This document shows, in pieces, positions 12,401 to 41,679 of a DNA stretch of 64,000 nt. The stretch's first letter is position 1. Each line of letters begins with the position of its first letter. The position numbers and the translations under genes were made by a program. Origin of the DNA: Ophelia neglecta (lineage: Eukaryota); assembly GCA_965285935.1 (NCBI GenBank), contig OZ260664.1, positions 80,414,001 to 80,478,000 of the forward strand, given 5' to 3'. Below the pieces are notes generated by a model. The model was not told the origin of the DNA. It ran no database searches and saw only the letters and a list, made by a program, of their open reading frames with translations.

Positions 12401-12677
12401 TTCTAGCCTTGTCAAATATCTGGTGGATAAGGTGTGGCTGTTATTATGGAAGTATGATGAAGCAATGGTTTTCATTTTAATTAAAAAAAAGGGCAACCTC
12501 TGTGCCTTGCTGAAGAAGATATTAATCTCCTTTTATTATTAGGTGTAAGATTAATAATAATTAGCTGGCATCATTATACCTTTTTTAAAAGTATAACGCT
12601 GCACCTCGTCATCAAAAATCCAAACATGTTGCAGCGTTGTTCACATCATTTTTAACCAGTGGTATGCACATAGAGCA

Positions 12678-13345
12678 CTGACTCAGGCTAGTGACTAGAG
12701 CTTAGCTCTGACCCAGGCTAATGACTAGAGCTTAGCTCTGACTCAGGCTAGTGACTAGAGCTTAGCTCTGACTCAGGCTAGTTATTAGTGCTTAGCTCTG
12801 ACCCAGGCTAATGACTAGAGCTTAGCTCTGACTTGGGCTAATGACTAGAGCTTAGGTCTGACTCAGGCTATTGACTAGAGCTTAGTTCTGACTCAGGCTA
12901 ATGACTAGAGCTTAGCTCTGACTCAGGCTATTGACTAGAGCTTAGCTCTGACCCAGGCTAGTGACTAGAGCTTAGCTCTGACTCAGGCTAGTGACTAGAG
13001 CTTAGCTCTGACTCAGGCTAGTGACTAGAGCTTAGCTCTGTCTCAGGCTAGTGATTATAGCTTAGCTCTGACCCAGGCTAGTGACTAGAGCTTAGCTCTG
13101 ACCCAGGCTAGTGACTAGAGCTTAGCTCTGACTCAGGCTAGTGACTAGAGCTTAGCTCTGACTCAGGCTAGTGACTAGAGCTTAGCTCTGACTCAGGCTA
13201 GTGACTAGAGCTTAGCTCTGATTCAGGCTAATGACTAGAGCTTAGCTATGACTCAGGCTAGTGACTAGAGCTTAGCTCTGACCCAGGCAAGTGACTAGAG
13301 CTTAGCTCTGACTCAGACTAGTGACTTGTGACTTGAGCTTAGCTC
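12678..13345. repeat. 30-bp minisatellite, ~22 copies (actcaggctagtgactagagcttagctctg)
   Basis: Directly visible tandem array with few substitutions. Confidence 0.97.
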
Positions 13346-16300
13346 CCACTATATTAACTTAGACAAACTCTAAGATACATGAAAAGCATAGGAGGTTAGA
13401 GAAAACCTGAGACATGGATCACCAGCAGACGGAAACAGGCTGTGGTGAGATGTTGGCCATACCATTTCACCCCATTAACTTGACCTATATGAATAGCTGC
13501 CATTCACTGACTTTAATATGATACTTTTTGTGCAATGCAAAATTATTTCAGCCATTTGACTTTGGACTCTGAATTTATAACATTGACCTCCAATGTTGTA
13601 TCCCAGGCATATCTCAGAGTGTTTGCATGCTTTAGTTTTCTTCTTTCACACAGTGTTAAGCCAAATTATGTGTGTATCTCTATGTATGGCAGAGATGCAT
13701 ATACCAGAGATTGGAATCGGGGCCCTCAGGTGAAAGGAGCCAACATCTGGGTATATATATCTCTGATAATGGTGGAGTTTTGTTTCTTTACCTATGACCT
13801 AAGACCCACAATATTCACACGTAACTTCTTTACTGTAGATCATAATCTCAATCAATTCTTCCGGCATAATGGTCCAAGGTAGGCATTATGATATGATAAC
13901 AAATGATTTTGCTGTAAGCAATTTCTCCATTCTCACCTTAACTAACCAGTATCTAGACTAACCTTTGTAAGTGTATCCCAATGCACTGAATGCAATAGGT
14001 CATATCTATTGCTAGGTTGTTCTGCTGCTCAGCAATCTATTTTTTCTGCAGTTCTGTGCAACTATTATTAATTTTATAAGAAGAAAAGTCCTTTACGAAG
14101 AGACAGTCATGGGTGGTTTGTAGATTGCTTTTTATTTTGTTCGGAAAGGTCTTGTGGCCCCCTCAGTAGCTGCACACCTAACCAAACCTATTTCTGCAGT
14201 TGCACCATGAGTAAGACATTTGCAAAAAAATCTTGAAAAAAATTTGAAACAATAGAAATGAGGTGTGCTGATATAGAATGGCCTCTGTCCCACTCTACCG
14301 CATTTTCTGCCTCTGCCACTTAAAAAAGGCTTTAACCTTGTAATGGCTTAAAGCCTATAGAGAAACCATTTCAGCAGGTAGGAGTTTAAAGCATCAGAAA
14401 TATTTCTACAAAAGGCTCAATTGGACTCATCCACTTAACATGAGAATGTCTGGATTGAGTGCCCTGAGAACTCCAGCAAAGGGGAGGCTGGGATGTCAAT
14501 GCTGGAGCTTCTATGTCTGCATGGGCATGAATTGATTAACTCGGTGGATAGCCAATTATTTGTGTTTGGCATAACAACCACGAGAAATAGAAGTATTCCC
14601 ATAACTCCTTTCAAGTTCTTAATTATATATGCTAAGCTTTCTAGATGCATTGTCAGCCTATAGAAAACCATGTAGTTCCTCTGGTGTAATCAAGTTCAAC
14701 CTTGATCCTTTTTTTAAGGTAAAATTGGGAAGAAAATATAGTTTTTCTGTGTATTTTATACCTTTTGCCTCAAGTTTTAAAATAACAACAGGGATTTCAA
14801 TAACTGTTCAAGTAGCAAGTGAATTCTTAAAAGAAGGCACAGAAATCCCTGGCCCCGTAGGGACTGAAATGAGGCTCTCAGAAGCTGATTGATTGTTGAT
14901 ATTCCCAGCTACGTTTTCAGCCATTTCAGGCTTCAAATCTTTATTTCCTTGGTTTTTAAGACTAATTATTTAGTACTAAAATTTAACCTTGCAGAACAAT
15001 CTATTAGTACACTGTATACATTAATCTTTCGCTCTTTACATGTTGTTCATCTACTGCCTCTTCTAATTCATGGTCAGAAATTATTGCATGTCCTAGTCCT
15101 AGCCAAGGACATCGGAATCACATTCAGAGTCAGAATCAAGATCATCATAACCTTTAAGTTCAACTATGCAGTGTAAGGCATTTTATTAAAGGTGTTCCCC
15201 TAGTGACTCAGATTCAGTTGCAGGAGGCTGGTAAAGAATGGCAGACTCAACCACTTTCTTAAGTTTGCATATAGGTTTGTCTGCCAGCTGTTTATTCACT
15301 GCCTCCTGAATGAAGGTGACACAAACTTTTGTATTGGGAACAGGACCATTTGTAGACAGGAAGACTTAGAAACTTCTCTTCTTTGCCATGTTTTGCTCAT
15401 GTAGAAAGACAGCGCAGGAAGTGAAGCAAGAAACTAGCAACAACACTGTGAGGTCAGAAATTCAGAAAATACCCTGTCTGACAAGGAATAAAGAGAAATA
15501 GAGACCTGGGCCACATTTTGGGTAGGCTGGCTCCCTGCCTTTTCCCATACCTTTGTCCATTACATATACCTAACTGTAGCAGTGCATAAACCATTTGACC
15601 ATATTGTGACTCCACAGATATCACAGAGGAGATGAAAAAACGAAAACCGCGGAGACGCCGACCATCATGCACAATCACCAAGTTCCTGAATAAAAGCTTA
15701 ATATGGTGTGGTCCCTGTGTTGCCATTACATCATGACAAAAAAGTTTGATATCAATAATAAAATCAGTCACCTTGCCTGAATAAAATGAATGTAAATCCC
15801 CAAACTTTAACAAAATTTATTTCCATTGTGTTAAAGACTATGTTTCTGAATTGGAGCCATATTGGTCAAGAACAACATAAAAAACAACATTATAGATCAA
15901 CGAGTTTCCTACAATCTACTGGGAATACTCATCCAAATAAGTGAATTATTGACAGCACCCTCAGTTGCTGTCTATGGCATCAATTTCTAATTTTTCTAGT
16001 GTAAGTCTAAATATTGAATGCACTCTGTGGCCTTGTATATATATTATATTGATTTGGTGAAGTACGGGATGGACAGTTTTATAGTGCAGGCTCAGTGATT
16101 ATATGTGGCATCATTAATTCTCTAATGGATTCCAATTAGCATGTCTATGCTATTAAAGAATAACAATGATAATACATGTAGAGTAATAAAGAATAATAAC
16201 TGTTTTGTTAGGCACTAAAATGGGTGTATTGATTATGATAATCAGTGAGACGAAGGCTCATTTTGTATGTCAATTTTATAGCTACTTGGTTAGATAATTG

Positions 16301-16660
16301 TCTCATATGGTTAAGGTTTTAGGAGGTAATTAATATATGAAGATTGGATGATTGTTAAGTATTAATAGAGTAATTTGGAAGATCAGAATTAAATTAAATG
16401 TACCATAAACCCATTGCACTATTGAAAATAAATGATCACCTTATTAACTGCAAATATTTTTGTGGCCATTATTTTGTTCTGCCCTTTTTACTGTTTACCT
16501 CATTACTTCATGTTGGACTTGTGTTGGTGAACAGAAATGTTTTTTGATTCCTACCTTTAAAAGGCCCTTATGCCATTAAAATTGGTTTGTTTTGAATGAA
16601 TTCTTTGAAATTCATGTTTCAGTCTGAGGCTTCAATAATCCTCTTTAACAACTAAGTTGA

Positions 16661-17311
16661 TTTTAAACATTAATATGTGACACATTGAGGAGCTATCTTG
16701 TGTTGTAGGGATGACTGTCTGGCATTTAAACATTAATATGTGACACATTGAGGAGCTATCTTGTGTTGTAGGGATGACTGTCTGGCATTTAAACATTAAT
16801 ATGTGACACATTGAAGAGCTATCTTGTGTTGTAGGGATGACTGTCTGGCATTTAAACATTCATATGTGACACATTGAGGAGCTATCTTTTGTTGTAGGGA
16901 TGACTGTCTGGCATTTAAACATTAATATGTGACACATTGAGGAGCTATCTTGTGTTGTAGGGATGACTGTCTGGCATTTAAACATTCATATGTGACACAT
17001 TGAGGAGCTATCTTTTGTTGTAGGGATGACTGTCTGGCATTTAAACATTCATATGTGACACATTGAGGAGCTATCTTGTGTTGTAGGGATGACTGTCTGG
17101 CATTTAAACATTCATATGTGACACATTGAGGAGCTATCTTTTGTTGTAGGGATGACTGTCTGGCATTTAAACATTCATATGTGACACATTGAGGAGCTAT
17201 CTTGTGTTGTAGGGATGACTGTCTGGCATTTAAACATTCATATGTGACACATTGAGGAGCTATCTTGTGTTGTAGGGATGACTGTCTGGCTTTAAACTTA
17301 ATATGTGACAC
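16661..17311. repeat. 63-bp minisatellite, ~10 copies
   Basis: Unit atttaaacatt(a/c)atatgtgacacattgaggagctatcttgtgttgtagggatgactgtctggc. It explains the 21-aa periodic ORFs at 16632 and 16922. Confidence 0.97.
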
Positions 17312-20300
17312 AGTGTTATCTGTGTTTAAGGGATACCCTCTGTGCCTGTAGTAGTCTGCTAGGATGTGACAGCCTTGTTTTGCTAGCCGATGTGTCTTCT
17401 TCTCTGATTTGTAAATGGATTTCTGCCATTAGACTGTCATACTAGCATACTTAGGCCAAATTGATTAAACAATTAATTACAGGAAAGACAGTCATGTTGT
17501 TATATGGTTATGCAATTGCCAAAATTTCATGATCCACTTCCCTTCTGCCATCTAATTAGCACGATCTGTGGTGGAGTTGTTCGGCTAGATGCCTAATAAT
17601 CCATGCAAATGTGCAGAAGATCCATCAGTAGCAATTTGCTGAATGGATGAAATGTTTCATGTGTTTTAGCAAGAAGCTTTTGCGTACAGATGTGTGGTAA
17701 TTTATTGCAATTGATCAGCAATACTATTGTTTGGAAGGGTCCATGGTGCAATGAGAAACTGTGATCATCAGACAATATAATCAGTCAGATAGAGACCTTA
17801 TGTTCTTGTTCTGAGTTGACTCCTTTTCATTTTTGTTGCAGTGTTTGCATTGCCAAGTGTTATGTATATGGCCAGTTGACAGGATATGAGACATAAAAAG
17901 TTGTAACCTTTTTCTGATAATAAATTACCTGCAATGGCGCAAATGTCTCTGGTCTTATTAGTTTGAAGGCAGTGCCTATAAATCTAATAAGGCCATATAA
18001 AAGATATTAGCTAAATATGCATGACTGGTTATCTTTGTGTTATAAAGAATATCAGTCTCATTGTTCCTGTGTTTTTTTTTCTTAAATTGCAATGACTGTA
18101 TAACTGGTTTTACGAGCATGGATAGTTTATTGAGTTTAGCACAAAGGATTTCTTGGGAATGCAATGGGGGCATGAGAAACATATCCATCGCCAAGCTGAT
18201 CTAGTGAATTCCCATGTTTTCATTTGCCTTGATCTGTTCATCTATCATTAAAAAAAATCTCCTGAGACAGGCCTTTCCTCTTTGCAGTGTTATTGCAAAA
18301 ATAGTATTTGGCCGGGGCGGTGGCTAACCGAGTTAAGTGATGATATGTTATCCCTGGCTGACAAGTACATTTTGTCAGCTTTATTGTGTCATGCCAATAT
18401 CAGTGCATGTCACCTTGAAAATGGACGACCTAGGGTCTCATTTGTATGTTTGGATGAAAATGCCAAAGGAAAAAACAGATTGACTTAAAAAGAAATCTTG
18501 TATCAAGGCCAACGAAGGCACCAGAAGTCCATGCCAAAACAGGTGATCTTGCCAGAAAGGGTTGCTTTCAACTTTTTCATCTTTTTTCTTTCCTGTGCAA
18601 TACCTAAAAGCAACTAGTTAAATCAGACATAACACAGTATTTTTTGGAGCTTTCAATTGTTTTGAGCCCACAAAAATAATCTACACACCATACAGATCAA
18701 AGCAAATGATATCAAGTCATACACTGGATGACTATAACTTGGACATGTGTAAAAATAAGTGCATATGTTTTGAGGGAGTTCATTGTGCTCTACCATACAT
18801 GTACTGTATAAGAAAAGCTCCAGTAAAGAAGAAAATCATTTGTAGTGTTTAAATGTGGCACTGGATGCAGATATGCATGCCACTGTGGCTCAGGTTGATT
18901 TCAATAATCTTTTAAAACCATGCATTACAAAAGTATTACAGGAATTTACATGTACATATACATAACAAAGATGGTAACTTTTCAACCTTCAACACAAATA
19001 GAGGGATTAAACTCTGACACAATTTACCATCGTAAATTAATGTAAGCAACACTTAATCACATTTAAATAGTACTCTATTTGGACAAGACTAAAACAGCAT
19101 TAATTCCTATAAATTATTAATGATACACACACATTACTGTTAAATTTTTGGCCACCTTGCCTTTATCAAGACGCAAGACTGAACTGTGATTTAAACTACA
19201 ATTTAAATGTTCTACCTAGTAGCTGCATTTGGAATAAATTAAAACTATATATATTTTCTCAGACAAGACAATGGTTTAACCTTTTTGTTTAACATGGTGA
19301 GGGAGATGTGGGGATCATAATTCTGTAGGTAAAATCACAGCAATTAGTTCTATGATGGCTTACTAAGGGAACTATTGATGTTTTCAACTGTAAGAACAAT
19401 AACTTTTTTATAACCCCCCTGGTCTGTTACAAGCTATAATCATTTCTATTAAGCCATGGTTTTTAAAAAGGTTAGTTTACAAATCCGCCCTGGTTAATTT
19501 TATTTGGAATTAGAATAAATTTAAAATTAGAAAGTACCTGTTTTATTTATCCCTGCCCAGGAGATTGATCCCACAACCTGTAGTTTTATTTGTATATTTT
19601 TTTTCTATGGAGTTTTAAAGCATCCCTCACAACCATTGTAGCAAGTTGCTGTGTCCTTTTTCTTTTTTTTTTGGTAATTTTTTATGTTTTCCTTCTGCCT
19701 TGTCAATGTTTGTCAAAATTTTTTAACAAACCAACACATTAAAAAATGATTGCCTCATACTCCTTAAAATATTAACAGCTTTCTTCATAATTAATTACAA
19801 GTTGTCAATTTAGAAAATAATGATAAGTCAGGCACAATCTCTGAAATAACTTTCTTCATGATACCAACCTCAAGCATATATTCTTTTATACATTAAATTT
19901 CCAGCCATGCGTCCAGAACTGCTCCACCTACCGTCACTGCTGTATGCAGGTTCTGGCTCTCTTTTGTTAGCAATGTAACTCTCTGATTATCCAATTTGTG
20001 GAGGATCGTGCAGTTTTATCTGAGCTGATGTGTATCACAACGACCGGATCAAGGGATTAAACACAAGATAAGTTGAATAATGGAGTTTTCCCATATACAG
20101 GAAGAACTCTTTACTTCAGATGCAGGATGTTTATAGAGTCTGTCTACCCACTACAATTGCACCAATTTGATTATAAAATCAAGGAAGGGTGCATGCTGGG
20201 TCTTCAAAAGTGCACATCCGGGATATCCAGAATCAGATAACTGATAACTGAAGTAATGAAACAAAAAAGTTATTTTAGTTCAATCACATGAGATAGATTT

Positions 20301-20450
20301 ATTTAAAATTTTTACAACTTTTAGTACAAGGAGGCACAACTCATTTTGAAACAACCAGAGGGATATACCTTATTATGCATGTTTTCTACAAAAGACAATG
20401 AAATAAGATTATTTATTAATTATCACTCTGGAATTAACATAGTTAATTTA

Positions 20451-20635
20451 CAGGGAGACCTGTGAATTACAACCACCCAAAGGACTGGAAAATACTGGTC
20501 TGATAACAGAGGGGGTATATTTACACAGGTTATTAAAGTTGAAAGTGGTTATGATAGTCTTCATATCGGTGGTCTGCAATGTCAGGAGGTCTGAGTATAG
20601 AGGTGGCCTTTAAGGCAGGTAACAGTCTATAACTG
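20451..20635. mobile_element. Tc1/mariner-type MITE inserted downstream of the GPCR copy A stop codon
   Basis: TA|cagggagacctg...caggt...aactg, same family as 4016-4192 in the opposite orientation. The paralogous site in unit B (~27410-27430, taacataattaatatatataacacaataatt) is empty. Confidence 0.75.
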
Positions 20636-21453
20636 TTATAACACAATAATTAATGACACAATAATATGTACATTGATACACGTATCTTGAACAGTTGTGT
20701 AACTAATGTTTTTTTTTCCCATTAAACATTTAGTTAAATTGTGCCTTTCAATGTTTCATGTATACCATGAAATTTGAAAAGCATTTCATTACATTATCAT
20801 AAGTGTTACATTATACTTTAAGAAATTTTGTATATTTTACACAAATTGAGTATGTATGAGGTACGAGATTACATTAAATGTCCAACTCACTCAAGAGTTC
20901 ATTTATTATTCATTATCACATATTGAATATTCTTTATTATAGATTACAAACAGTTTAATTATCAACTGGAGCTGACCACTTGAAACTCATCTTTATAATG
21001 CAATGCATACTGTGGCCACGGGTAATTGATAAATGTTTGCCTCATTACCGCACTCTGTACAGTTACCGGCAGTTTATATTTGTAAAGGAGAAAATGGGTT
21101 CCTCTTAAGCCAAACTTAGTCAACTTAATACATTAAATTTATATGCTAGGTTTTTATTGTTCAGTGTCCACCAAACTGAAAAGGAAGGGTATTAAGAATA
21201 ATGTTGGCATGCTTACTTTTTATTAACTTCCTTGATCCCCTACATACGTATATGAATTGGTAAATTTCATTATCCGATGACATTGTTATTTTGCCCTATA
21301 TACATGTACCTCACAGCCCAGTGAGGTAGTGGGTATGTTTTATTTAAAGATACCCCCGCCAACAGTGTGATTGATGCTGAGCCTGTGAGGGGAGGTATTA
21401 TTGTACATGTATTGTGTGTGGGGATACCCTTTCCATGTCTGCCGGTATACAGG

Positions 21454-22671
21454 TTATAGAGGCACATCACAATCCCTTTCCGGAGAGCCTTTGTTGAGCT
21501 CTGCCATTGATTGACCATTTCTAGTTGCAATACTCCGTGTTGTCAAGGTGAGGGGCTCTGTTTCTGATATTTCTGATATTCTTGGTCTCACACCTCCACA
21601 TGAATACATGTCTGCCAGAATTTTTCTAAACTTCTTGCCAATCAGGCAGTATATTAGAAAATTAATTGAACTATTAACGACAAGCATAAGGTTGGTGAAC
21701 ACGTTGATATACTTCAGTATGATATAATCAATGCGCATTTCAGGGATGAATTCCCGCAGTGTGGCGACGATACGGAGGGTCAAATCAGGCAGCTCACAAA
21801 CGATGAAGATGCTGACAACAACCACAAGCATCAGGGTTATATTTTCCCGATGTTTTGAAGTTTTGTTCATGTCCTTTTGCTTCTTTCTCACAGCTTGTAG
21901 GGCTTGTATCAGTCTGAGATTTAACACAATCAACATCAGGAGTGGCCCTATCGTCCGAAATACAAAGTAGCATAGCGTTTTGTAAAACAGGAAATATAAC
22001 TTACTTTCTCGTAAACTTGTCTTTTTGGTTGCGACCACTGTATTTCCCCAGCAGTCAGTTTCAAACACGAATTTCCGCTCAAAGAATCTTGGCACATTGT
22101 AGAGAACTGCGGCCACAGTCACCAGAGCCACGGCCAATTTGGCCCTTTGCAAGCTGCGAAGCTGGGCTTTCAGTGGTTTACACACGGCTACGTAGCGATC
22201 TACGGTGACCAAAACTACAGTCCAAACAGTGACAGTCTGTGCTATTGAGGCAAAAGCCCAGCTATAGGGCTCTATGTAGGGAAACACCCCCTTCAGACTG
22301 GGTATCCAGTCTGTCTCTTCATTGATAGTTTTCAGTATCTGTATAAAGACACAGGCCACCAAGTAGAATGTGTCCACCAAGGCTAGGGTCTGCAGTAGCC
22401 AGTTGGTAGTGTTTCTCTTATCATGGTCATGATTAAGGACAACAATGGACAGTGCATTGCCTATGAACCCCACAAGGCACAGAAATCCCACTATGTAGAT
22501 GTTGACCACTTTGCGAAACATGTGATATGCCTCTGGGTAGTAAACCAGTGTCCCAGTGTTATTACAGGCCCCTAGACCAGGACCATTGGGGCCATAAATG
22601 AGCGAAAAGTTTGTGGCATTGAAAATATCTCCAAACTCAGAGTGATCCAGAATATTCTGCACACTGGCCAT
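21454..22671 (-). CDS. Class A (rhodopsin-like) neuropeptide GPCR, FMRFamide receptor-like, copy A, 405 aa, intronless CDS
   Basis: Seven hydrophobic segments with GN (TM1), LALVD (TM2), DRY (TM3), YNVPRFFE (end of TM4, typical of the FMRFamide/sex-peptide/myosuppressin receptor group), CELP (TM6), NSSINFLIY (TM7) and helix 8 KKFRKIL. N-glycosylation sequons NAT, NFS and NNT. The ligand cannot be determined from sequence. Confidence 0.95.
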   Translation of the reverse strand: MASVQNILDHSEFGDIFNATNFSLIYGPNGPGLGACNNTGTLVYYPEAYHMFRKVVNIYIVGFLCLVGFIGNALSIVVLNHDHDKRNTTNWLLQTLALVDTFYLVACVFIQILKTINEETDWIPSLKGVFPYIEPYSWAFASIAQTVTVWTVVLVTVDRYVAVCKPLKAQLRSLQRAKLAVALVTVAAVLYNVPRFFERKFVFETDCWGNTVVATKKTSLRESKLYFLFYKTLCYFVFRTIGPLLMLIVLNLRLIQALQAVRKKQKDMNKTSKHRENITLMLVVVVSIFIVCELPDLTLRIVATLREFIPEMRIDYIILKYINVFTNLMLVVNSSINFLIYCLIGKKFRKILADMYSCGGVRPRISEISETEPLTLTTRSIATRNGQSMAELNKGSPERDCDVPL

Positions 22672-23694
22672 AGCGTATGTTGAGTTTGGTCCCGTAGCGG
22701 TCTAGCTGCCACAGTGTTGCTTTCCTCAAATGAGTAATTAATTACTTACCAACATATTGTAATGTTGAATTGGACTGATTAGAAGGAATATCACTGCATT
22801 ATTTGTGAAATGCCAAAATATATTGTACGCAAACACTTAGCCAGCCGATCAATGAATGTTCAACTGTTGGACAGAATTTCAGGAATGATGAAAGCACCGG
22901 TAGTTATGCTGTCAGGTTGGAAGAGTCACCTGGATTCCTGAAGGGCACCCAACTTAAAATCTCTCAGCTGCTCCTAGCATGGAACATCAATAGTTGTTTA
23001 ACCCTCCTAAAGCCTCAACAAGTTCTCTTCACATTGATTATATTCCCAGCTATCTGCGCAGGTAGTAGAATCCCCTGTCATATAGGCTGGGGCTGTGCGG
23101 CAGTTGCCTCCACTGCTGATAGTGCCGGAATTGATATTTAGCATTTGTTGGTCAGATATGGTTGTTGTTCGGAAGCGCTGATGTATGTAGAGCTGTAGTC
23201 ACTAATCTAATGGCGACCACACGGTTGACTCTAATTCTAAATGTCCAGAGGATCAGTGTTTGCTAAGACTTCCACAGCTCAGAAACAGGAAAAGAGCTGT
23301 TTTAAAATAATCTCTCACTAGATTGTGGCCTTTTAAATCCTCTTTTTTAGCTATTGTTCAATGGTAATATTGAATTTGTTTGAATTTTATTCCTTAATAT
23401 TTCACTACATTTTTACAATGACATGAATGAGGCTAAATCAGTTCACTTTTGCACAAGCTGTGCAGCAATTTGAGTTGTGCTGGTGATTAGGTGTGTGTGA
23501 GAGACTAGGCAGGCTGTCGCTCCTGCTTACTGTGGCTGGGGCTCGTGCAGTCCTATTTGACTGATGACGCTGGTGAGGAGCAATGGCTCGCCAGGTGCTC
23601 ACTGTACAATTGGGGCTTCTGACTTGCACACATCTCTATGGTTAGACCACTCAATTACAAACCAGTCAGGTGGTTTAACTTTCAAAGCCACATA

Positions 23695-23720
23695 ACCTTC
23701 CTGAAGGTAAAAACAAAAAC
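23695..23720 (-). promoter_or_regulatory. Putative 3' splice acceptor opening the 5'UTR exon of GPCR copy A
   Basis: Minus strand reads gtttttgtttttaccttcag|gaagg (AG at 23701-23702). It is conserved in copy B, and identity between the copies drops on the intron side. Confidence 0.65.
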
Positions 23721-24841
23721 ACTGATTTAACATTGTCTGTATTGGTATTGTTAAAAAGCTGCGGACTAAGATAAGTCTTTTCCCTCCTTTGTATCATGTA
23801 TATCAGCATGAGGCATAGTAATTTAGATAAAAAAAAAATCAGTGCTCACAGTATACATCTATATCAGAGTATTGCATATTTCATGATAAACTGACTGTTT
23901 GAAACCTTCATTGGAAACTGTGTGATTAAGGAGTTTTATGTAAAATTGCATGAAGGGTTTCTTTGTATGGAGCCTAATCCATATCATGATGAAACAATCT
24001 TTAAATAACACATCCTTTCTGTTATGTATTGGTTGGGTCTGACTTTTTTTATGTCACCTAAGCACTGATCTGAGGGGCTCTGAGCTCCCTCCTCACATTT
24101 ATAACTGTAGTGCCTGAACTAAATCATTGTAAAAGAAGTATCTTTTTATCCTTTGTATAAGAAATTCCATCTCCTCTCGTGCTTTTAAAAAAAAAAGAAA
24201 TGTTGTGCCCCAGCCACATATCAAAACCAAATCAACTTGTGAGGCATGAGACTGGAAACATGTAAGGCATATAAAACGTTAGTGTGGAGATCATAATACG
24301 ATATGTAATATGTCACAGAATCCCTCCTAATGAAATATTCCAATTTCTGTCATGCAGTCATCTGGAATGAAGACTTGGTAGGTTTGATGTAGTTGACAAT
24401 GCCCACACTGGCAGAGGCCATGTTCTGTGTCACACAGTGTGGACATGAAATTGTGTCAATTTATATCTGAAAAAGTCAAAGTTGTTTTAAAAAATGGTCT
24501 TGTTTTTTTTCTTAGCTCAGTAACTCATATTTTCTTGTACATCTATGGAAAAAATTACAATCCATCACACGCTGTCAACCGTATGACCAGGCAGTAATGT
24601 TGAGGTATCTTCTAGACAGCAATGCTGTCTGTCGTGCGTGACCAATGGGAAGCACAAGTGTCAACTATGAGCTGTTGTAGGAATAACTTACCAAAGGAGA
24701 AAAACTTATCAAAAGGGAATCATTTACCAAAAGGGCATCACTTACTGAAGTGGTACATTGTAATAAATAGAGAATAGTACACAACAAAGTTAATAGATAA
24801 GCAATATTTATTTGACCATATAACCACAATTGGGTTTGTCC

Positions 24842-25110
24842 TTAAACACCAAAATTAAAGTTAAAATTGAAGCTAAATGGTTCAGGATTACCTGCAGTAG
24901 CACGAATGGTGATGTGGTTATAAGACATTAAGATGTTTACGGAAGGGGCTTCAGACATGGTGGCAGCTTCCTGTACTTCACTAGCTGTGGGCGAGGCTGC
25001 AGTGGCTACTACCTGGGCTGCTGGGTTGCTGGCTGGGCCACTGGGAGTTCTGCAAGGGCTGTTGGTGGGGCTCCCATTGCAGCTTCTGATGCTACTGAGG
25101 GGATACCTTG
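24842..25110 (-). pseudogene. Possible coding relic: Ala/Pro/Ser-rich segment ending ...PFSFNFNFNFGV*
   Basis: GC-richer, codon-like island. One frame reads GIPSVASEAAMGAPPTALAELPVAQPA and a shifted frame continues NPAAQVVATAASPTASEVQEAA... to the stop. AATAAA lies ~30 nt after the stop. Origin unknown. Confidence 0.35.
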
Positions 25111-26416
25111 AATAATGTGACTTATTTTTCATCATACATAATCATGCATGGCGGTTGGCTTTTGTGATTGACAGCTAAAACTCAAGTAGGTCACAAGAGA
25201 CAACTATGAGCTGCTGTGGTAAACACAGCTGCCTACATCAAAACCAAGCATGACCACTAGGCACTAGTTGATAGAGTAGATTTTATAAACAACTCTCATG
25301 CTTGGCTTGCCCCTACTAGCAGCAGATTTTGCATATGTAAACCTCAGAAGTGTGAGGTTACTATGAACACGGACTACGCCTCAGCAATCCGTATTTCCCG
25401 TATTGCTCACTTCTGTGGGCATTGGCTATTACATATACATGTTGTGAGAATGACATCCAATGGTTTTTTTCTTGTTCCTGATCATTGATGCTGCCTACAG
25501 TTTCCTACTGGGCCGTGTGACCACTAGTTTCACACATCCTGTGCGTCACATTATGTTATATATGTGATTTTTGTAAGTAAGATCCTATTTTTTCATTTAA
25601 ACAGTAGCAAGATATGTACAGCGTACTACTTTCAATAGTTGTAACTCCTTTGCCGCGGATATGACTATACAGTGGCAGGATCATTGGTGCTGAACCGTTT
25701 CCACCTCAGTTCAGGGGTCATCTGTAACTACCCTCACAGTAATGTGCACAGGCTGATTGTAGGTTAAATTGGTAATTGACACTATCCTATTTTATAAAAA
25801 ATATATGAATATTATGTTGTTTTAATTGCCATATTTCTTTTGTTGGTTACTGATAAGAAATAAATAACTATGTAAGTTGGAATTTAAAATTAATTGTAGA
25901 AATAAGGGTCCATTTTTCTTGTGTCCCTAATTTTGCATGTGTTAAATTACATTAGTTACTTCTGTCTTGGCTAAAAGGAAATATTCTCTTTTTTCACCCA
26001 AATGACAAATAATTTAGTAACTTTTTGGAAAATTAGTAAATTGTGTCACCTAGCTGAATGCCTTATTTTTTATCTGCCATACCTTGGACAGTAGTTAGTA
26101 TGTTGTGCATTAGGATCTGACATCTCCCAAATCAAGGTTTGATTCAATAGACTTTCTGTGGATATTACCAGCACACATATTGAACTGTGTTCAGCTTTCA
26201 TTTTTGTAGTAGTGACACAATCTGTTAAGTTTGGCCACTTTTCATACTAAATGGAAAACATTGTCCAGATGTGTCTGACATTTGCCTTTAAAGTTTTATG
26301 CCATGCTTGGGAAACATGTTGTATTATCTTCATTATTGTACTGTCAATAAACATGAAATTGAAAAATAATTGTTTTTAAATGTTATTGTTTGCTCTGATA
26401 GCTTCATTAAACTTAC

Positions 26417-26499
26417 CTTCCCCTGTCATGTTCTGGTAGGTGTCTGTGAATTGATGGCTGCCGCATTCATAAAATATCAAACACATCCTTTCTTTCCCC
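26417..26499 (-). other. Candidate 83-nt non-coding exon between the two GPCR units
   Basis: Minus strand has the acceptor ttcttgtaacag| and a perfect donor AAG|GTAAGT (26411-26416). Confidence 0.3.
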
Positions 26500-27929
26500 C
26501 TGTTACAAGAATTAATAATTCTTTTCTATACCTTTAATATGACAAACTAATTACTTGATAATAAATTAATTATTAGTCGGAAATTTAAACAAAATAAATG
26601 ATGTATCAGGCACATTGGGTGAGGTAAGATTTATCTGGTTTGTTTGTCAGTTAGGTAAAATGACCAACATGATTTTATTCTTCAATCAAGTGGTAACAAG
26701 GGCATTCTTAATTCCTGGTTTATCATAATCAATTTATCAAACACCACATCTTTTTGAGATAATTTCATCCATTAATGATTAGACAAATAGCTTTTTTGTT
26801 GGGTGTAAAACTGCTGCACAGCTAGCCTTAACACATATGTTTAAAAATAGATTCTGTCGTATGCAGCCATGCCTCCAAACAGAGACAATCTGCTCCAAAT
26901 ACCGTCACTGCTGTATGTTCTGGCTCTCTTTTGTTAGCAATGTAACTCTCTAATTATCCAATTTGTGGAGGATCGTGCAGTTTTATCTGAGCTGATGTGT
27001 ATCACAACGACCGGATCAAGGGATTAAACACAAGATAAGTTGAATAATGGAGTTTTCCCATATACAGGAAGAACTCTTTACTTCAGATGCAGGATGTTTA
27101 TAGTATCTGTCTACCTTTTTGCCCACTGTAATTGCAGCACTCTAATAAAAAGTCTAGATTTTGGATATTGCCAAGGTCTTCAATATAGCATATCCTTGAT
27201 ATTCAGAAACACAAATAACAAATGTAATGAGACAAAAGAGTTATTTTAGTTGAATCACACAAAATAGATTTATTTTGAAGTTTACAACTCTTGTCACAAG
27301 TAGGCATAACACATTTTGAAACAACCAGAGGGATATACCTTTTTTTTGCATGTTTTCTACAGAAGAAAGTGATATAAGATCATTTATCCATTAACACCTT
27401 GGACTTAACATAATTAATATATATAACACAATAATTAATAACAATATTATGTACATTCATACACGTATCTTGAACATTTGTGTAACTATATAACATTTGT
27501 TTGTCAATTAAACATTTAGTTACATTTTGTCTTTCATTTTTTTCATGTTTACCATGAAATTTTGAAAACAATTTCATTTCATCGTTATATGTTAACATTA
27601 CACTTTAAGAAATGTTGTATATCTTACATAAATTGAGTATGTATGAGGTACAAGATTAAATTTAATGTCCAACTCACCTAGAGTTCATTTATTATTCATT
27701 ATCACATATTGAATATACTGGAATATAAAATACTAACCGTTTAATTATCAAGTGGAGCTGACCACTTGAAACTAATCTTTATAGTGCAATAAATACTGTG
27801 GCTGTGAAACCATGAATGTTTGAAAATATTATAACAGTAAGCCTGTAGCAATGTTGGACAAACTATAAATGAACAACCAATAATTTGTTACTGTTTGTTC
27901 AGTACATAGCTTGACCTTAGCGCAATAAT

Positions 27930-28385
27930 ATATAAATGTTTGTACATACTATCACTGTGAACCCATTTATGTGTTTGTACCCTATGCTGATTGTCAAGCT
28001 ATTATTGTTTATACATGCTATAACTGTTAATTCATTAACTTTTGCTTGTCGAATGATTATTGTATTTTATCATTTCCAACATCACAGAGTTTAATGGAAA
28101 CAAAATAATAGACACATGTACAAAGAAACATGCAACTGTCACTGAGCTCCAGCCAATATTTATAAATGTTTGAAAGATAACATGACTGTGAACTAATTCC
28201 TGTGTTAATATTTGTACAAATATACTATCAATGTAACGGTATTAATTTTTATACATACAATGACTGTTAATTCGTTAATATTTGCCGGCCAGATGTTTTT
28301 TTGTATTTTATCATATCCAATATCATGTTGTTTAATGGAAACCAAATAGTAGATATGTGCACAAAGAAACATGCAACTGTCACTG
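27930..28385. repeat. Diverged ~240-bp direct tandem duplication inside the copy-B-specific 3' segment
   Basis: Both halves contain actgttaattc, tgtattttatcat and gtttaatggaaac, and both end caaagaaacatgcaactgtcactg (at ~28144 and ~28385). Confidence 0.8.
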
Positions 28386-29189
28386 TACAGTTATTAAGGC
28401 AAGCTATAATCATGGACAATATGCTGTATGGACCCAAGGCAAACAGTAGTGGCCACAAATATAAGAGGGCTTTCCATTAAGGTTGCCTGTGTTTTTATCC
28501 TGTCCAAGCCAGTGTCCCGGTTATTAACTACATCTAATAATAAAACATGTACATGTCTGGAGCTTATTAAAGCCTCAGTTCTCCCCAGCACACTAATTGT
28601 AGTAAAAGTTGATGTTTTATTATCCCCAAACATACATGTACATGTGAGACTCCCCTACAGATCTGTACATGTATAATATGTTAGATTATCATGAAATATT
28701 TACAAAGTAAGCTATTCCAATGTTTGCAAGAAGACGAAATGTCTACTGATTTGAGTAATTTAACAATGAAACGAGAACATTTTATCGTTGGCCTCATTAC
28801 AGCACTCTGTACAGTTACTGGCAGTTGTTATTTGTAAAATTGAAAATGGGATCCTCTTAGGCGAAACTTAGTCAACTTAATACATTTAATTCGTATTCTA
28901 GGTTTTTATTGTTCCACCAAACTGAAAAGAAAGGGTATTAAAAATAATGTTGGCAAGCTTACTTTTTATCAACTTCCTTGATCCCCTACATACATATATA
29001 TGAATTGGTAATTTCCATGATCCGATGACATTGCTATTTTGCCATATGTACCTCACAGCCCAGTGAGGTTGTGGGTATGTTTTATTTTATTTTCATTGCC
29101 AACAGTGTAATTGCTGCTGAGCCTGTGAGGGGAGGTATTATTGTACATGTATTGTGTGTGGGGATACCCTTTCCAAGTCTGTATACAGG

Positions 29190-30407
29190 TTATAGAGGCA
29201 CATCACAATCCCTTTCCGGAGAGCCTTTGTTGAGCTCTGCCATTGATTGACCATTTCTAGTTGCAATACTCCGTGTTGTCAACGTGAGGGGCTCTGTTTC
29301 TGATATTTCTGACATAGTTGGTCTTATTTCTGTACATGACACCATGTTGGCCAGAATTTTTCTAAACTTCTTGCCAATCAGGCAGTATATTAGAAAATTA
29401 ATTGAACTATTAACGACAAGCATAAGGTTGGTGAAAACGTTGATATACTTCAGTATGATATAATCAATGCGCATTTCAGGAATGAATTCCCGCAGTGTGG
29501 CGACGATACGGAGGGTCAAATCAGGCAGCTCACAAACGATGAAGATGCTGACAACTACCACAAGCATCAGAGTTATATTTTCCCGATGTTTTGAAGTTTT
29601 GTTCATGTCCTTTTGCTTCTTTCTCACAGCTTGTAGGGCTTGTATCAGTCTGAGATTTAACACAATCAACATCAGGAGTGGCCCTATCGTCCGAAATACA
29701 AAGTAGCATAGCGTTTTGTAAAACAGGAAATATAACTTACTTTCTCGTAAACTTGTCTTTTTGGTTGCGACCACTGTATTTCCCCAGCAGTCAGTTTCAT
29801 ACACGAATTTCCGCTCAAAGAATCTTGGCACATTGTAGAGAACTGCAGCCACAGTCACCAGAGCCACGGCCAATTTGGCCCTTTGCAAGCTGCGAAGCTG
29901 GGCTTTCAGTGGTTTACACACGGCTACGTAGCGATCTACGGTGACCAAAACTACAGTCCAAACAGTGACAGTCTGTGCTATTGAGGCAAAAGCCCAGCTA
30001 TAGGGCTCTATGTAGGGAAACACCCCCTTCAGACTGGGTATCCAGTCTGTCTCTTCATTGATAGTTTTCAGTATCTGTATAAAGACACAGGCCACCAAGT
30101 AGAATGTGTCCACCAAGGCTAGGGTCTGCAGTAGCCAGTTGGTAGTGTTTCTCTTATCATGGTCATGATTAAGGACAACAATGGACAGTGCATTGCCTAT
30201 GAACCCCACAAGGCACAGAAATCCCACTATGTAGATGTTGACCACTTTGCGAAACATGTGATATGCCTCTGGGTAGTAAACCAATGTCCCAGTGTTATTA
30301 CAGGCCCCTAGACCAGGACCATTGGGGCCATAAATGAGCGAAAAGTTTGTGGCATTGAAAATATCTCCTAATTCAGAGTGATCCAAAATATTCTGCATGC
30401 TGGCCAT
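29190..30407 (-). CDS. Class A neuropeptide GPCR, FMRFamide receptor-like, copy B, 405 aa (alternative in-frame ATG at 30422)
   Basis: Same motifs as copy A, with 10 aa differences (V4M, F13L, F/Y in ECL2, seven in the proximal C-tail). The ORF-track start at 30452 is a non-ATG codon; the ATG at 30407 aligns with the copy A start. Confidence 0.95.
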   Translation of the reverse strand: MASMQNILDHSELGDIFNATNFSLIYGPNGPGLGACNNTGTLVYYPEAYHMFRKVVNIYIVGFLCLVGFIGNALSIVVLNHDHDKRNTTNWLLQTLALVDTFYLVACVFIQILKTINEETDWIPSLKGVFPYIEPYSWAFASIAQTVTVWTVVLVTVDRYVAVCKPLKAQLRSLQRAKLAVALVTVAAVLYNVPRFFERKFVYETDCWGNTVVATKKTSLRESKLYFLFYKTLCYFVFRTIGPLLMLIVLNLRLIQALQAVRKKQKDMNKTSKHRENITLMLVVVVSIFIVCELPDLTLRIVATLREFIPEMRIDYIILKYINVFTNLMLVVNSSINFLIYCLIGKKFRKILANMVSCTEIRPTMSEISETEPLTLTTRSIATRNGQSMAELNKGSPERDCDVPL

Positions 30408-31752
30408 AGCATGAATTTTCATGCTATATGAAAGGTAAATTGTGTCAATCAAATAAAACAGTCGGAATATGTAGATTTGTCCTTTTACAGTCTAGCTGGG
30501 TTGCTTTCCTCAAATGAGTAATTCATCACTTACCAACATATTGTCATGTTGAATTGGGTAAACGGAATATTACAGAAATATTGGTGAAATGCCAAAAATG
30601 TCTTGCACTCCAACACAGCCAGGAGATCAACAACTGTTCTGAAGTTGGACAGAATTTCAGGAGTTTTGAAAGTAGCTATGCTCTCTGGTTAGAAGAGTCA
30701 CTTTGATGCCTCAGGGGCACCCAACTTAAAATCTCTCAGCTGCTCCTAGCATGGAACATCAATAGTTGTTTATCCCTCCTAAAGCCTCAACAAGTTATCT
30801 TCGCATTGATTTTCCCATCTATCTGCGCAGGTAGGATCCCCTGTCATATACCTCGGGGCTGTGCCACAGTTGCCCTCTCTGCTGATAGTGCCGGAATTGA
30901 TATTTAGCATTTGTTCTTCTGATGTTGTTGTTGTTGAGAAGCGCTGAGGTATGTTACCACGGCAGGGCTTTCATCACTCATCTAATGAAGACTGCACAGT
31001 TACCTCTGATCAGAATCCTACAGGCATTAACTGGCATCCATCAACCAGCTGTGCCTTAATGAGCCTGACAGGTCTCCCAAGTACTCTTCTTCCTCTTAGA
31101 AAATCAGTCCCTCCTTTCGGCAAACGGCTAAAGTTTGGTGAAGCCAGATTAGAGGTATCCTTGTCCTTTGTGTGAGGTTTATCAATGAGTTTTATTTATT
31201 TTTATTTAAGTTGTCTCATTATCATTTCTTTCCAAATCACCCTCTTTCCTTTATCACAAAAGCCCCTGTCTGCAGTAGATCTAAATGTTGATATCTTAAT
31301 GTCCAGAGGGTCAGTGTTTGGTACAAAATCCTATGTCCTTCCTCAGCTTAGAGACAGGGAGAGCTGTTTTAAAGTATTCACCAGTGTGAGGCTTTTTGAG
31401 GTCCTCCCTTTTTTGGCAATTGTCTTCATCAAATATTGAATTTTTTTCAGCTTTTATTCCATTGAGTTTCACTACACAAGTACAACAAGACTGAATCAGT
31501 TCACTTTTGCGCAAGCTGTGCAGCAATTTGAGTTGTGCTGGTGATTAGGTGTGTGTGAGAGACTAGGCAGGCTGTCGCTCCTGCTTACTGTGGCTGGGGC
31601 TCGTGCAGGCCTATTTGACTGATGACGCTGGTGAAGAGCAATTGCTCGCCTGGTGCTCACTGTACAATTGGGGCTTCTGACTTGCACACATCTCTATGGT
31701 TAGACCACTCAATTACAAACCAGTCAGGTGGTTTGACTTTCAAAGCCACATT

Positions 31753-31778
31753 TCCTTCCTGAAGGTAAAAATAAGCAC
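31753..31778 (-). promoter_or_regulatory. Putative 3' splice acceptor opening the 5'UTR exon of GPCR copy B
   Basis: Minus strand reads gtgcttatttttaccttcag|gaagg (AG at 31759-31760); paralogous to 23701-23702. Confidence 0.65.
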
Positions 31779-32809
31779 AGATTTAAAATTGTCTGTATAG
31801 GTATTGCTAAAAAGGCTGCAGACTTATCAAGCATATCAGCTGTATAAGGCAAAATAATAATACCGGTAGATATAGATTAAGAAAACAACAGTGCTCACAG
31901 TGTACATGTATATGTATATCAGCGTATTGCTTTTCATTAACTTGTCATGTTAGATTGGCTGTTGAAAACCTTCAATGGAAACTGTGTGAGGTAGGATTTG
32001 TATATTAAAAACACATGAAAAGGCCACCTTTATATAATACTTTTTAATCCATATCAGAATGAAATGGTCTTTTGATAACACATCTTCTTTGATATGTCAT
32101 GTTCAGGGGTGGCTTTTATCATGAAACACAATCATCCAGGTTTGGGTGTATGTACACCATTCAGAGGGCTCTGAGCTCCCTCCTCACATTTACAACTGTA
32201 GTGCCTGAACTAAATCATTGTAAAAGAAGTATCTTTTTAGCCTTTGTAGAAGAAATTCCATCTCCTCTCGTGCTTTGAGAAGAAATGTTGTGCCTCAGCC
32301 ACATATCAAAACCAAATCAACTTGTGAGGCATGAGACTGGAAACATGTAAGGCATATAAAACGCTAGTGTGGAGATCATAATACGATATGTAATATGTCA
32401 CAGAATCCCTCCTAATGAAGTTTTCTTATTTCTGTCTCACATTCATCTGGAATGTTGACTTGGTAGGTTTGATGTAGTTGACAGAGCCCCAGTCAATGCC
32501 CACACCAGAAGAGAGAAACTGTGTCAATTTATATCTGAAAATATCAAAGTCGTTTCAAATTATGTTCTTGTTTTTCATAGCTTGTGTACCTATTTTCTTG
32601 TCCATCTACAAGATAGTGCATCCATCACAGTCAGTCAGCTCTGTCCCAGCTGTGTAATTTGAAGGCGCAAATTTTAATCTGTTAGTATGCATGATGTGTG
32701 AATGACATCAAAAGTTCTTTTTCCTTTTTGCAGCCATTGCTGTGGCATAATGTTTCCTACGGTGATAGGTGCATGTGTGTGTAGGCAGGTTGGTTCTGTG
32801 TGTACCAAT

Positions 32810-33193
32810 AGTGTGCCTTTCTGTGTTGGCAAGGTGGCCCTGTGTTTGACAGCAGTGGGCCTGTGTGTGTTGGCAGGGTGGCCCTGTGTTTGACAGCAGT
32901 GGGCCTGTGTGTGTTGGCAGGGGGGCCCTGTGTTTGACAGCAGTGTGCCTGTGTGTGTTGGCAGGGTGGCCCTGTGTTTGACAGCAGTGGGCCTGTGTGT
33001 GTTGGCAGGGTGGCCCTGTGTTTACCAGCAGTGGGCCTGTGTGTGTTGGCAGGGGGGCCCTGTGTTTACCAGCAGTGGGCCTGTGTGTGTTGGCAGGGTG
33101 GCCCTGTGTTTACCAGCAGTGGGCCTGTGTGTGTTGGCAGGGGGGCCCTGTGTTTACCAGCGGTGGGCCTGTATGTGTTGGCAGGATGGCCCA
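32810..33193. repeat. 44-bp GC-rich minisatellite, ~8-9 copies
   Basis: Unit gtgtgtgttggcagggtggccctgtgtttgacagcagtgggcct. ORF starts spaced 44 nt apart (32909, 32953, 32997) confirm the period. Confidence 0.95.
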
Positions 33194-35249
33194 TTGTATT
33201 AAGTTGCCACTGCAGGCATCACTCTAATGAGATCACTGCAGGTTAGCCTCTTCTCACTAATGGTAACCAGACACATAATGTGCGGCCCTGCAGACAAATA
33301 CCAGAGGCTGTGGCCATTTGGTGGCCACCTTTTGTTATCATTGATGGCTCATTATTGGTGTCTGCATGCAATCTGGGATGGATTGCAACAATCTGGTTAG
33401 CATTGAGCCCAAAGGAACCTATAAGAAATCTAGGACAGCATGGTGATATTGTAACAGCGACACTGTCCTTCGGCTTTATCACTGAACCCAATTAACACAA
33501 TGAGTTGCTTTGTTGCTAGGTTTTAAAGACTTCCATGTGTACCTTGTGAATCACAATTATATCTATTAATTTATGTCCAATATAACAATTATTCCTGTGG
33601 TTATGAAGAATTGCTGAGGACATTGAGTTGTAATAACCTTGTTGATGCAGCGAGTTCTAGGAAGCTTCACCTGTTAACATAGAGTGTGTCAGATTGTGCT
33701 TTTCCTTGAGATGACATGACTCATGGAAACATGTTGTTGTCACTGAACCCCCAATATTAATTGTAATGATGCTAATAATTCCTTCTGCACGTATCAGATG
33801 TGAGAGTTGGCATTTTAATAACACACTGTACATGGGCATCTATCGTTTTGTCAGCTACTTCTTAATATTATAAATACTGTTTGATTGGATAAAAGCAACT
33901 ATATTTGCTCCAATCAGATTTGGCTAAGAAAAAGATGAAATGCAAGCTGTTGACAAATAAATTGTTCATAAATTGTGTGTATATGAACAAACGCTGGTGT
34001 CACATTTTGTGTGTGGTCCATGTTTTTATTAGAGAAATGTGTTATTTATATTGTCCATCACATTGAATTCTGTGTTTGTGGAAAAGGCACTCCTATATTT
34101 GTGTGGATATTGTAGACAGTAATGTGTGAATAAATGCGTTATTGGGAACATGGTAAACAAAAACCTTCTGTCCATTAATGCCAATGTGTACAAGGTTATT
34201 TATCCTTGGTTTGATTAGTGGCATATCATAGTAAACTGCTGCTAAATTATCAAACACAATTGATTGAATAAATGTTTTGGACACCTGATGTGGACATGAA
34301 ACCATTACCGGTATTTCTTTATTAACCTGAACCCCCCCCCCCCCAATAAAAAAAAAGAGTGGTAAAGTTGCACTCTAGAATAACAAATGATGTCTTAAGT
34401 ATGAAAAGGCCTCTGATTTATTGGAATTCTACCCATTACATGTACATGTAGGTTACAAGTAGGTGCATGATATCAGCAGGCTGTCCTTTATGTTAAAACC
34501 GTTGACATTGAGAACAGGATCGCAGGTTCCTTCCGTCATGGAAATGGTTACCTGCAAATTTATTGAAATCCCATCTCTGGTAAACACAGGGTTATGCTTT
34601 CACAACCTTTCTCACCGATTTTTAACTATAATTTCAGGGGCCGGGTCAGCTGTGATCATGTCTTTAGTGGCATGCTTGAATCATCCGTGCCATCTTCTCA
34701 GCTTAAGTATGACTAAAATCGTGTATTCTGATGTTATATCTATGATCATCGCCACTTTTAAAGATTAAAATGTCTACTTGTGTTAGTGGAGGTAAACAAA
34801 GGGCATCGATCCTCACATTTGGCACATTTCAAAGGACCTGTGGCATGGTTTGCTTATAGGATTTCTTGTTGGAGATGTCATTGTCAATATTATTTGCTAT
34901 GTCTGATTTGCTTGCTTCATGCTGGTGGACACCAAATGGACATGATATTTATCTCTAGTGAGTGTGCATCTGAGGTGCCCATAAATTAACCTTTGATTTC
35001 ACCTGCCTCTTCTAAGATGTTTGATGCCCGAATCAGTTAGCACAAATTGTATTTAAATAACTTAAAATTTGTGCTAACAAGAATGATTAGATATTTTACA
35101 AAAATAACTAACATTTAATATAAACAGGACATATAAATGCTAAGCATGTGTGGAATTCTTCGTAAATTATTTTTTTTGCAGAATTAATGTGAGTAACCTG
35201 CATATTCCGCAGAGATTTCACAGATAAAGTGTCGGGCTAATTTCTGAGA

Positions 35250-35338
35250 GGGTGATGATGGGTTGATGATGGGTTGATGGGTGGTGGGTGGTGGGTGGTT
35301 GGTTGGTGGTGGGTTGGTTGTGGGTTGGTTGGTGGGTT
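35250..35338. repeat. Degenerate GGT/GGTT microsatellite running into a gap
   Basis: Directly visible. Confidence 0.9.
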
Positions 35339-35503
35339 NNNNNNNNNNNNNNNNNNNNNNNNNNNNNNNNNNNNNNNNNNNNNNNNNNNNNNNNNNNNNN
35401 NNNNNNNNNNNNNNNNNNNNNNNNNNNNNNNNNNNNNNNNNNNNNNNNNNNNNNNNNNNNNNNNNNNNNNNNNNNNNNNNNNNNNNNNNNNNNNNNNNNN
35501 NNN
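35339..35503. other. Assembly gap (165 N)
   Basis: Run of n. Confidence 1.
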
Positions 35504-41507: not shown

Positions 41508-41679
41508 CAGTGGCACCTGCCCTAAAGATCCACTCTAGATTAAGACCACCTTTTAATCCATACCAATGAGGCCACAGTGTACACTATCAATGTAAAACAA
41601 ACTGTCTAAACAGATCTCTCCCATAATCAGACCAGCATTTACCAGTCCCTTGGGTTGTCTCAATTGACAGGTTTCACTG
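41508..41679. mobile_element. Tc1/mariner-type MITE, same family as 4016-4192
   Basis: TA|cagtggcacctgccctaaag ... ccagtcccttgg..tgtc.caattg.caggtttcactg. The 3' end aligns with 4150-4192. Confidence 0.8.

Follow-up and report, generated by a model that had tools for sequence, protein, structure and literature searches.

Human HCAR2/HCAR3 and FFAR3/GPR42 are converted tandem pairs of intronless G protein-coupled receptor (GPCR) genes, about 95% or more identical, with few sites of difference, and are separate genes. A 64,000 nt stretch of the Ophelia neglecta genome (contig OZ260664.1, positions 80,414,001 to 80,478,000; hereafter the window, with positions counted from its first letter) carries two GPCR units, A and B, arranged in tandem on the minus strand. 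The original prediction for this region was that one promoter could splice to either unit, as a switch between mutually exclusive receptors. Our analysis favours another arrangement, to which we assign a probability of roughly 0.45, in which A and B would be converted tandem paralogues, largely redundant and each with its own nearby first exon.

Expansions of FMRFamide-receptor-like class A GPCRs are described in lophotrochozoans, in Lymnaea (PMC11589774) and as lineage-specific expansions in annelids (PMC11886862). The O. neglecta genes are like these in matching Pfam 7tm_1 and 7TM_GPCR_Srw, in forming tandem clusters and in having at least 103 matches in the genome (103 matches among the 103 scored of 705 candidates). 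There are 54 family matches on C7 with a median spacing of 53 kb, and 12 of these have a neighbour within 13 kb. Unlike a species-only expansion, the A/B gene has homologues at 55-80% identity across many records and is therefore a conserved member of the family. The nearest named homologues are from annelids (Capitella CAPTEDRAFT_182197, 60% identity; a Lamellibrachia 'FMRFamide receptor', 55%) and two further homologues carry the source name 'neuropeptide Y receptor type 1'. The name 'FMRFamide receptor' comes from automatic annotation, and the ligand assignment is putative.

There are two long non-repetitive open reading frames (ORFs) on the minus strand of the window, A at 21454-22671 and B at 29190-30422. 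Both match the two Pfam families (7tm_1 scores of 87.9 and 88.2 bits, cut-off 30.5) and the pair has the DRY motif, so that domain, motif and nearest names all place them among the FMRFamide-receptor-like rhodopsin-class GPCRs. Counted from the shared MAS start, the coding sequences (CDSs) are about 98% identical at the nucleotide level, with 21 codons and 10 residues differing, and the proteins are 97.5% identical. Seven of the 10 amino-acid differences fall in residues 354-365. The description of two duplicated intronless seven-transmembrane cassettes, nearly identical but differing in the proximal C-terminal tail, is thus borne out.

The 98% identity of the CDSs might be taken to mean that A and B are two haplotypes or an assembly artefact, but the probability of this is close to negligible. 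The flanks are up to 32% divergent and there are copy-specific insertions. In all three public runs the CDS collapses into one or more contigs whose depth is 2-4 times that of the contig with the A-specific tail (25, 70.5 and 60.6-85.8 for the CDS; 9.7, 23.9 and 16.6 for the tail), and run contigs spanning 25304-26946 link the spacer between the units to the end of unit B. These runs come from one study and, by record, one sample, and were used as contigs only; their kind is unrecorded, and they behave like DNA, with no splice joint, which says nothing about expression. The duplication is genuine and not an assembly error.

Divergence between the copies is a patchwork. Upstream (positions in A) it is 32% at 24400-24577, 4% at 24075-24345, 29% at 23720-24070, 4% at 23430-23700 and 19% over the rest of the 5' untranslated region (UTR). 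Within the CDS it is 0.7% in codons 14-352, 36% in codons 353-365 and 0.8% in the tail end; downstream it is 9-17%, apart from 0.5% at 19930-20136. At the fourfold degenerate sites of codons 14-352 only 4 of 156 differ, as against 29-32% in the upstream flanks (P = 8e-11 at p = 0.2). Selection on the protein does not explain this silent identity or the 151 nt perfect tract downstream, and it is therefore likely that gene conversion has kept the copies alike. In the public runs the collapsed CDS contig is a mosaic of A and B alleles. For shared polymorphism the picture is neutral: among the variants listed near A, five out of 17 carry the base found in B, and contigs drop variants. The duplication itself would be old, its flanks being about 30% apart, with repeated homogenization of the CDS and of four non-coding blocks. 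The near-perfect tract (19930-20136, matching 26900-27103) is non-coding, lies downstream of the last shared AATAAA and has no Rfam match; it is possibly an enhancer or the product of a recent conversion.

The part of the CDS that appears to have escaped conversion is the tail island at codons 353-365. This stretch has a mean column identity of 0.53 among 22 homologues, compared with 0.82 and 0.81 in the adjoining stretches, and Cys358, the SETEPL motif and the DVPL end are identical in A and B. A density of 14 differences in 39 nt has a P of 0.09-0.26 under 25-30% neutral divergence, before correction for the post hoc choice of the stretch. The tail difference thus fits neutral divergence, and the unconverted island is likely to be of little functional weight, which makes the term 'switch' an overstatement. 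A more elaborate scheme would have a promoter far upstream, itself antisense within the USP47 intron described below, and one transcript that ends in B or, when B is skipped and the 83 nt spacer exon is used, in A. Conversion would keep the ligand-binding core identical, and selection would maintain a divergent 12-residue tail after helix 8. The choice made by splicing would then be one of signalling or trafficking tail for the same receptor, but we consider this scheme clearly unlikely.

The motif tttttaccttcag|gaagg ends at 23701 in A and at 31759 in B on the minus strand. Splice sites were scored with matrices from 57 introns in this genome's myosin genes, found by protein alignment with GT and AG as the sole splice features (12 of 16 myosin loci yielded introns; the matrices represent coding introns of one gene family). 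True acceptors have a median of 7.1 bits (leave-one-out) and true donors 7.6 bits, and the median intron is 307 nt. Both acceptors score far above this (Table 1); only 13 acceptors of at least 13.0 bits, including these two, occur on both strands of 528 kb. The distance from acceptor to ATG is 1029 nt in A and 1351 nt in B. Among 20 paralogues, the best acceptor within 1.65 kb upstream of the first transmembrane helix (TM1) reaches 11 bits in nine, compared with two in the middle control window, one in the far window and three in antisense (Wilcoxon P = 0.002 against far and 0.003 against antisense). Anchoring at TM1 takes in all 20 paralogues, while an ATG-anchored version lost the seven without a start codon. 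ATG is depleted in the UTR of A (11 sense, 22 antisense; Poisson P = 0.003). Taken together, the acceptor scores, the excess of acceptors in paralogues and the ATG depletion in A suggest that the coding exon probably begins at this acceptor in each copy. Four of the seven AATAAA signals downstream of A are retained in B. A conserved acceptor in each unit, a 5' UTR of 1.0-1.35 kb and conserved polyadenylation signals had all been described in the original prediction and agree with these measurements; the acceptor scores and the paralogues lend good support to its premise that A and B are both spliced terminal exons.

Upstream of each acceptor there is a conserved block of about 270 nt that is 96% identical between the copies. 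Between its donors (24096 and 32187) and the main acceptors there are 395 and 428 nt, respectively, a distance near the median intron length. Although its acceptor-donor pair is of a kind frequent by chance, the conservation of the block is not. The block is a candidate promoter with first exon, a candidate cassette exon or a candidate enhancer, and the exon predicted within it (24251-24097 in A) could be first or internal. A second candidate, of 83 nt, is found in the spacer upstream of A and would give A an upstream exon, first or internal, that is absent from B. Its donor (26416) is the best minus-strand donor in 264 kb, where three donors on both strands reach 12.5 bits, and it is the only minus-strand pair in the 264 kb with an acceptor of at least 9 and a donor of at least 11 bits. 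No homologue of it was found in 647 donor-anchored comparisons (best score 35, mean 20) or in a genome search that skips common words. By rough estimate, a real donor in the spacer is favoured about five-fold, and the exon is two- to three-fold more likely to be internal than first.

Under the arrangement that we favour, each mRNA would consist of a short upstream exon spliced to the acceptor and would end at the copy's own AATAAA. The upstream exon would be the block ending at donor 24096 or 32187 or, in the case of A, the spacer exon ending at 26417. We prefer separate first exons because there is a conserved-block donor in each copy and a strong spacer donor for A, because two tandem pairs of the family have short self-contained units and because 5' UTR exons are seldom shared among mammalian olfactory receptor (OR) loci. 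In the first of these pairs (C5:96642883-96655609) a 12.7-bit donor is found in both copies, 0.3-0.5 kb ahead of the predicted ATG. The second (C12:41515731-41530747) is a young head-to-tail pair of another family member, 93-97% identical with six amino-acid differences, in which about 720 nt upstream of the ATG are duplicated and contain no acceptor of 7 bits or more. The original prediction that no promoter can be identified holds true but is a weak argument, as there are candidate upstream exons in or beside both units. Candidates are present in both blocks and in the spacer, all of which it had named as places for independent starts, and these may be first or internal exons.

Several observations weigh against separate first exons. 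The duplicated unit is short in relation to the median family spacing of 53 kb, and the start sites of both copies are candidates only. Acceptor-donor pairs like that of the block occur by chance 0.68 times per kb, and the sole donor common to both copies (6.7 bits) is below the median of true donors. The spacer donor was chosen after looking, and just 3 of 57 true donors score so high; the acceptor-like 5' end of the spacer exon (9.5 bits, found once per 2950 nt) fits an internal exon, which would require another donor farther upstream. In addition, ATG is undepleted in both candidate exons (four within the 83 nt of the spacer exon, four within the 155 nt of the block exon).

The closest precedent for a shared first exon is human RNASE4/ANG, in which a 5' UTR exon shared by both genes is supported by transcripts (PMC8373072, PMC2568002). 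A and B resemble it in that each is a single coding exon, homologous to the other and next to it on the same strand, with an acceptor and poly(A) signals by sequence only; they differ in that a shared exon is hypothetical here and that their proteins are 97.5% identical. Sharing of 5' UTR exons has also been reported for 7 of 874 human and 7 of 1483 mouse OR loci, e.g. OR51E2/OR51C1P, with further loci in supplements (PMC7055050). The likeness here is an intronless GPCR CDS with a spliced 5' UTR and many upstream ORFs, but OR genes belong to a different GPCR family, in which exon sharing among neighbours is RNA-supported and rare. By analogy, A and B could be one transcription unit whose first exon lies upstream of B, either within the host intron described below (at a distance of up to 114 kb) or beyond it. 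This exon would splice to B, with polyadenylation at B, or skip to A, possibly through the 83 nt spacer exon.

We regard this as possible but on the unlikely side. In its favour, both acceptors score among the highest 2% of true acceptors, UTR introns appear to be a feature of the family (an acceptor of at least 11 bits in nine of 20 paralogues, as above), the duplicated upstream part is just 1.0 to about 2 kb and the spacer exon appears to be internal. In addition, B and a third receptor gene nearby have about 115-120 kb of free upstream sequence, but A has less than 6 kb. However, no distal first exon stands out over the 114 kb: its seven minus-strand donors of at least 10 bits are close to the background of 47 in 528 kb. 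The five AATAAA signals within the duplicated 3' part of B would have to be bypassed, exon sharing concerns less than 1% of mammalian OR loci, and candidate exons with donors exist close at hand, one in the spacer with the strongest donor of the region and one in the block 0.4 kb upstream of the acceptors. As sites of a distal promoter, the CpG-rich patches at 56.5-58.4 kb and 97 kb, upstream of B, were considered and rejected, both being multi-copy young repeats (families of 1.8 kb at about 90% identity, 56590-58400, and 0.73 kb at about 95%, L023:3075-3810); the repeat search covered these two patches, and further patches lie at 44.7 kb (a tandem repeat) and 132-133 kb. Donors were not enriched in the approximately 5 kb upstream of 20 paralogues (11 sense, 9 antisense) in what is a low-power test. 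A search of Rfam with 17-45 kb of the window gave one sub-threshold bacterial match only, and among inverted repeats that might steer splicing there were 25 short pairs, none notable. Even with a shared exon, 'mutually exclusive' would be the wrong term: the arrangement would be alternative poly(A) or last-exon use, and one cell could make both receptors. Terminal swaps of this kind are classed as alternative poly(A) rather than as strict mutually exclusive splicing (PMC8373072).

It is also conceivable that a single copy is expressed and that the other, without a working promoter, is kept intact by conversion from its neighbour. The passenger would more likely be B, as an insertion that missed the exon at 26417, or else A, cut off by the poly(A) sites of B. 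Conversion alone can hold an ORF open. The UTR of B, in contrast to that of A, shows no depletion of ATG (22 sense, 21 antisense; 17 and 18 without the B-only insertion), and at residues 356 and 359 B departs from the residue that A shares with several homologues. On the other hand, there is no stop or indel in the unconverted N-terminal and tail segments (a weak point, these being only about 80 nt), the CDS as a whole having 0 indels compared with 14-20 events per flank, and both acceptors have been retained although the DNA just upstream has diverged by 29%. A silent copy is clearly unlikely on balance. Spliced-leader trans-splicing at the two acceptors, for which no cis donor would be needed, would account for strong acceptors with no strong donor common to both copies. 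It is very improbable, as a study of the annelid Dimorphilus found no spliced leaders and states the same for other annelids (PMC7854359).

Only about 0.87 kb upstream of the acceptor had been thought to be duplicated. Continuous homology stops at 24577 in A and 32637 in B, but in A an 815 nt interspersed repeat follows and homology then resumes. The resumed match has an E value of 3.6e-7 and scores 70, the highest score being 35 among 60 shuffles and 45 among 495 natural controls, so the duplication takes in 1.0 kb or more upstream of the acceptor. The apparent boundary is a transposon edge, and both apparent ends of homology are repeat edges. Beyond this there is no homology above controls between 25510-26890 and the DNA upstream of B. 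A weak collinear match of 26564-26628 to 19789-19850 exceeds 91 of 91 controls in one scoring and 86 of 90 in another, suggesting that the 3' flank of B extends to about 26500-26560. The junction is thereby loosely placed, from 25510 to about 26500, leaving about 1 kb (25510-26500) with no partner sequence, and may be up to about 2 kb upstream of acceptor A when the repeat is removed. Coordinates are collected in Table 1.

Table 1. Features of the A/B receptor locus (window coordinates; matrix scores in bits)
Feature	Position	Strand	Remarks
Copy A CDS	21454..22671	-	405 aa; intronless rhodopsin-class GPCR, FMRFamide-receptor-like
Copy B CDS	29190..30407	-	405 aa from MAS start; further in-frame ATG at 30422, 5 codons before it
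Predicted 5' UTR part of terminal exon A	22672..23700	-	Acceptor 23701/23700, 13.0 bits; 23430-23700 96% identical to B
Predicted 5' UTR part of terminal exon B	30408..31758	-	Acceptor 31759/31758, 13.4 bits; B-only insertion of about 280 nt
Possible 110 nt UTR intron in B	30424..30533	-	Donor 8.0, acceptor 6.1 bits; A retains donor (22749), lacks 54 nt carrying acceptor
Conserved upstream block, A	24075..24345	-	4% divergence from B; acceptor 24251 7.5 bits, donor 24096 6.7 bits
Conserved upstream block, B	32165..32430	-	Acceptor 32336 7.5 bits, donor 32187 6.7 bits
Single-copy 83 nt exon candidate upstream of A	26417..26499	-	Acceptor 9.5, donor AAG/GTAAGT 12.6 bits; GC 45%, flanks 25-28%
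Unconverted island, codons 353-365	21577..21615	-	Differs from B in 14 of 39 nt and in 7 residues
Converted tract downstream of A (likely)	19930..20136	-	1 difference in 203 aligned nt from 26900-27103; 151 nt perfect
Interspersed repeat, 815 nt, inserted upstream of A	24621..25435		78 matches including self; present in public runs
Duplicated sequence past repeat	25434..25508	-	Matches 32686-32760
Tandem repeat at end of homology upstream of B	32770..33197
Single phase-1 USP47 intron, 247,502 nt	1..64000 (C7:80312830-80560331)	+	Whole window inside

The spacer repeat contains a decayed coding-like stretch (24840-25100, minus strand) ending FNFNFNFGV-stop, an ending that we take to be typical of Crypton/DUF3504 C-termini, the label being unconfirmed. 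In the 3' flank of A only, at 20460-20620, there is a short, very high-copy element resembling a miniature inverted-repeat transposable element, with a depth above 15,000 in the runs.

In both copies the start codon is closely preceded by a GTAAGT donor (30533 in B, 22749 in A). B also has a branch-like TTGAC and a polypyrimidine TAG ahead of the ATG, within the 54 nt that A lacks. The pre-ATG donor of B could alternatively skip to the acceptor of A. In one run (X1) about 10 substitutions and several indels are found over the 350 nt of the predicted intron (23720-24070), and three single-copy UTR contigs (22616-23442, 852 nt) carry no variants, which is a weak hint of constraint on the UTR; in run X2 the intron equals the reference.

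The whole window lies inside one intron of USP47. A tblastn search with the fish USP47 protein places its residues as far as 702 at 101-114 kb before the window and those from 704 onwards at 82-94 kb after it; the plus-strand exons predicted 82-92 kb past the window are identified as USP47, and the exons before it are the catalytic ones. The intron has a GT donor of 11.4 bits and an AG acceptor of 9.8 bits, its in-frame junction matches the homologue and the gene matches Pfam USP47_C. The locus spans C7:80299892-80572071 on the plus strand, and apart from this intron its matched exons are spaced by about 3 kb at most. With host exons of one frame on both sides and on the opposite strand, A, B and a third GPCR (32% identical) are nested antisense genes, and a fourth GPCR lies just past the end of the host. 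The nesting resembles that of Drosophila 2mit in timeless2 (PMC3786989), where an opposite-strand gene also occupies a large intron of a conserved host, but differs in that three GPCRs share one 247 kb intron of an otherwise compact host. Literature searches for nested antisense GPCRs in a USP47 intron, and for alternative last exons that replace a whole GPCR in invertebrates, gave no match by title or abstract start.

The region is depleted of CpG (observed/expected ratio about 0.26-0.29), compared with mostly 0.5-1.3 in the DNA upstream of 19 of 20 paralogues, and the depletion ends near the last exon of USP47, about 160 kb past the window. In annelids the gene bodies of stably expressed genes are methylated (PMC11292947), and gene-body methylation of the host would explain the depletion. 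This replaces an earlier view of the depletion as a sign of a long intron of the receptor's own.

As ordinary converted paralogues, A and B would be a further example of birth-and-death evolution in a large annelid GPCR family. Were a shared first exon to exist, a whole receptor would be swapped by the choice of last exon, an architecture already known and here with proteins that differ little. The more unusual fact is the nesting: three receptors share a 247 kb intron of a gene that is otherwise compact and of housekeeping type. The locus thereby allows the working of receptor promoters to be tested within a likely methylated, oppositely transcribed gene body.

The window also contains tandem repeat arrays at 12674-13345, 16662-17334, 44900-45762 and 54057-56449, and a 122 aa ORF at 54562-54930 is a reading of the last of these. 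Among the myosin loci there is an intronless ORF of 1899 aa (C8:42860759 onward), about 130 kb from a multi-exon myosin gene, which is possibly a retrocopy.

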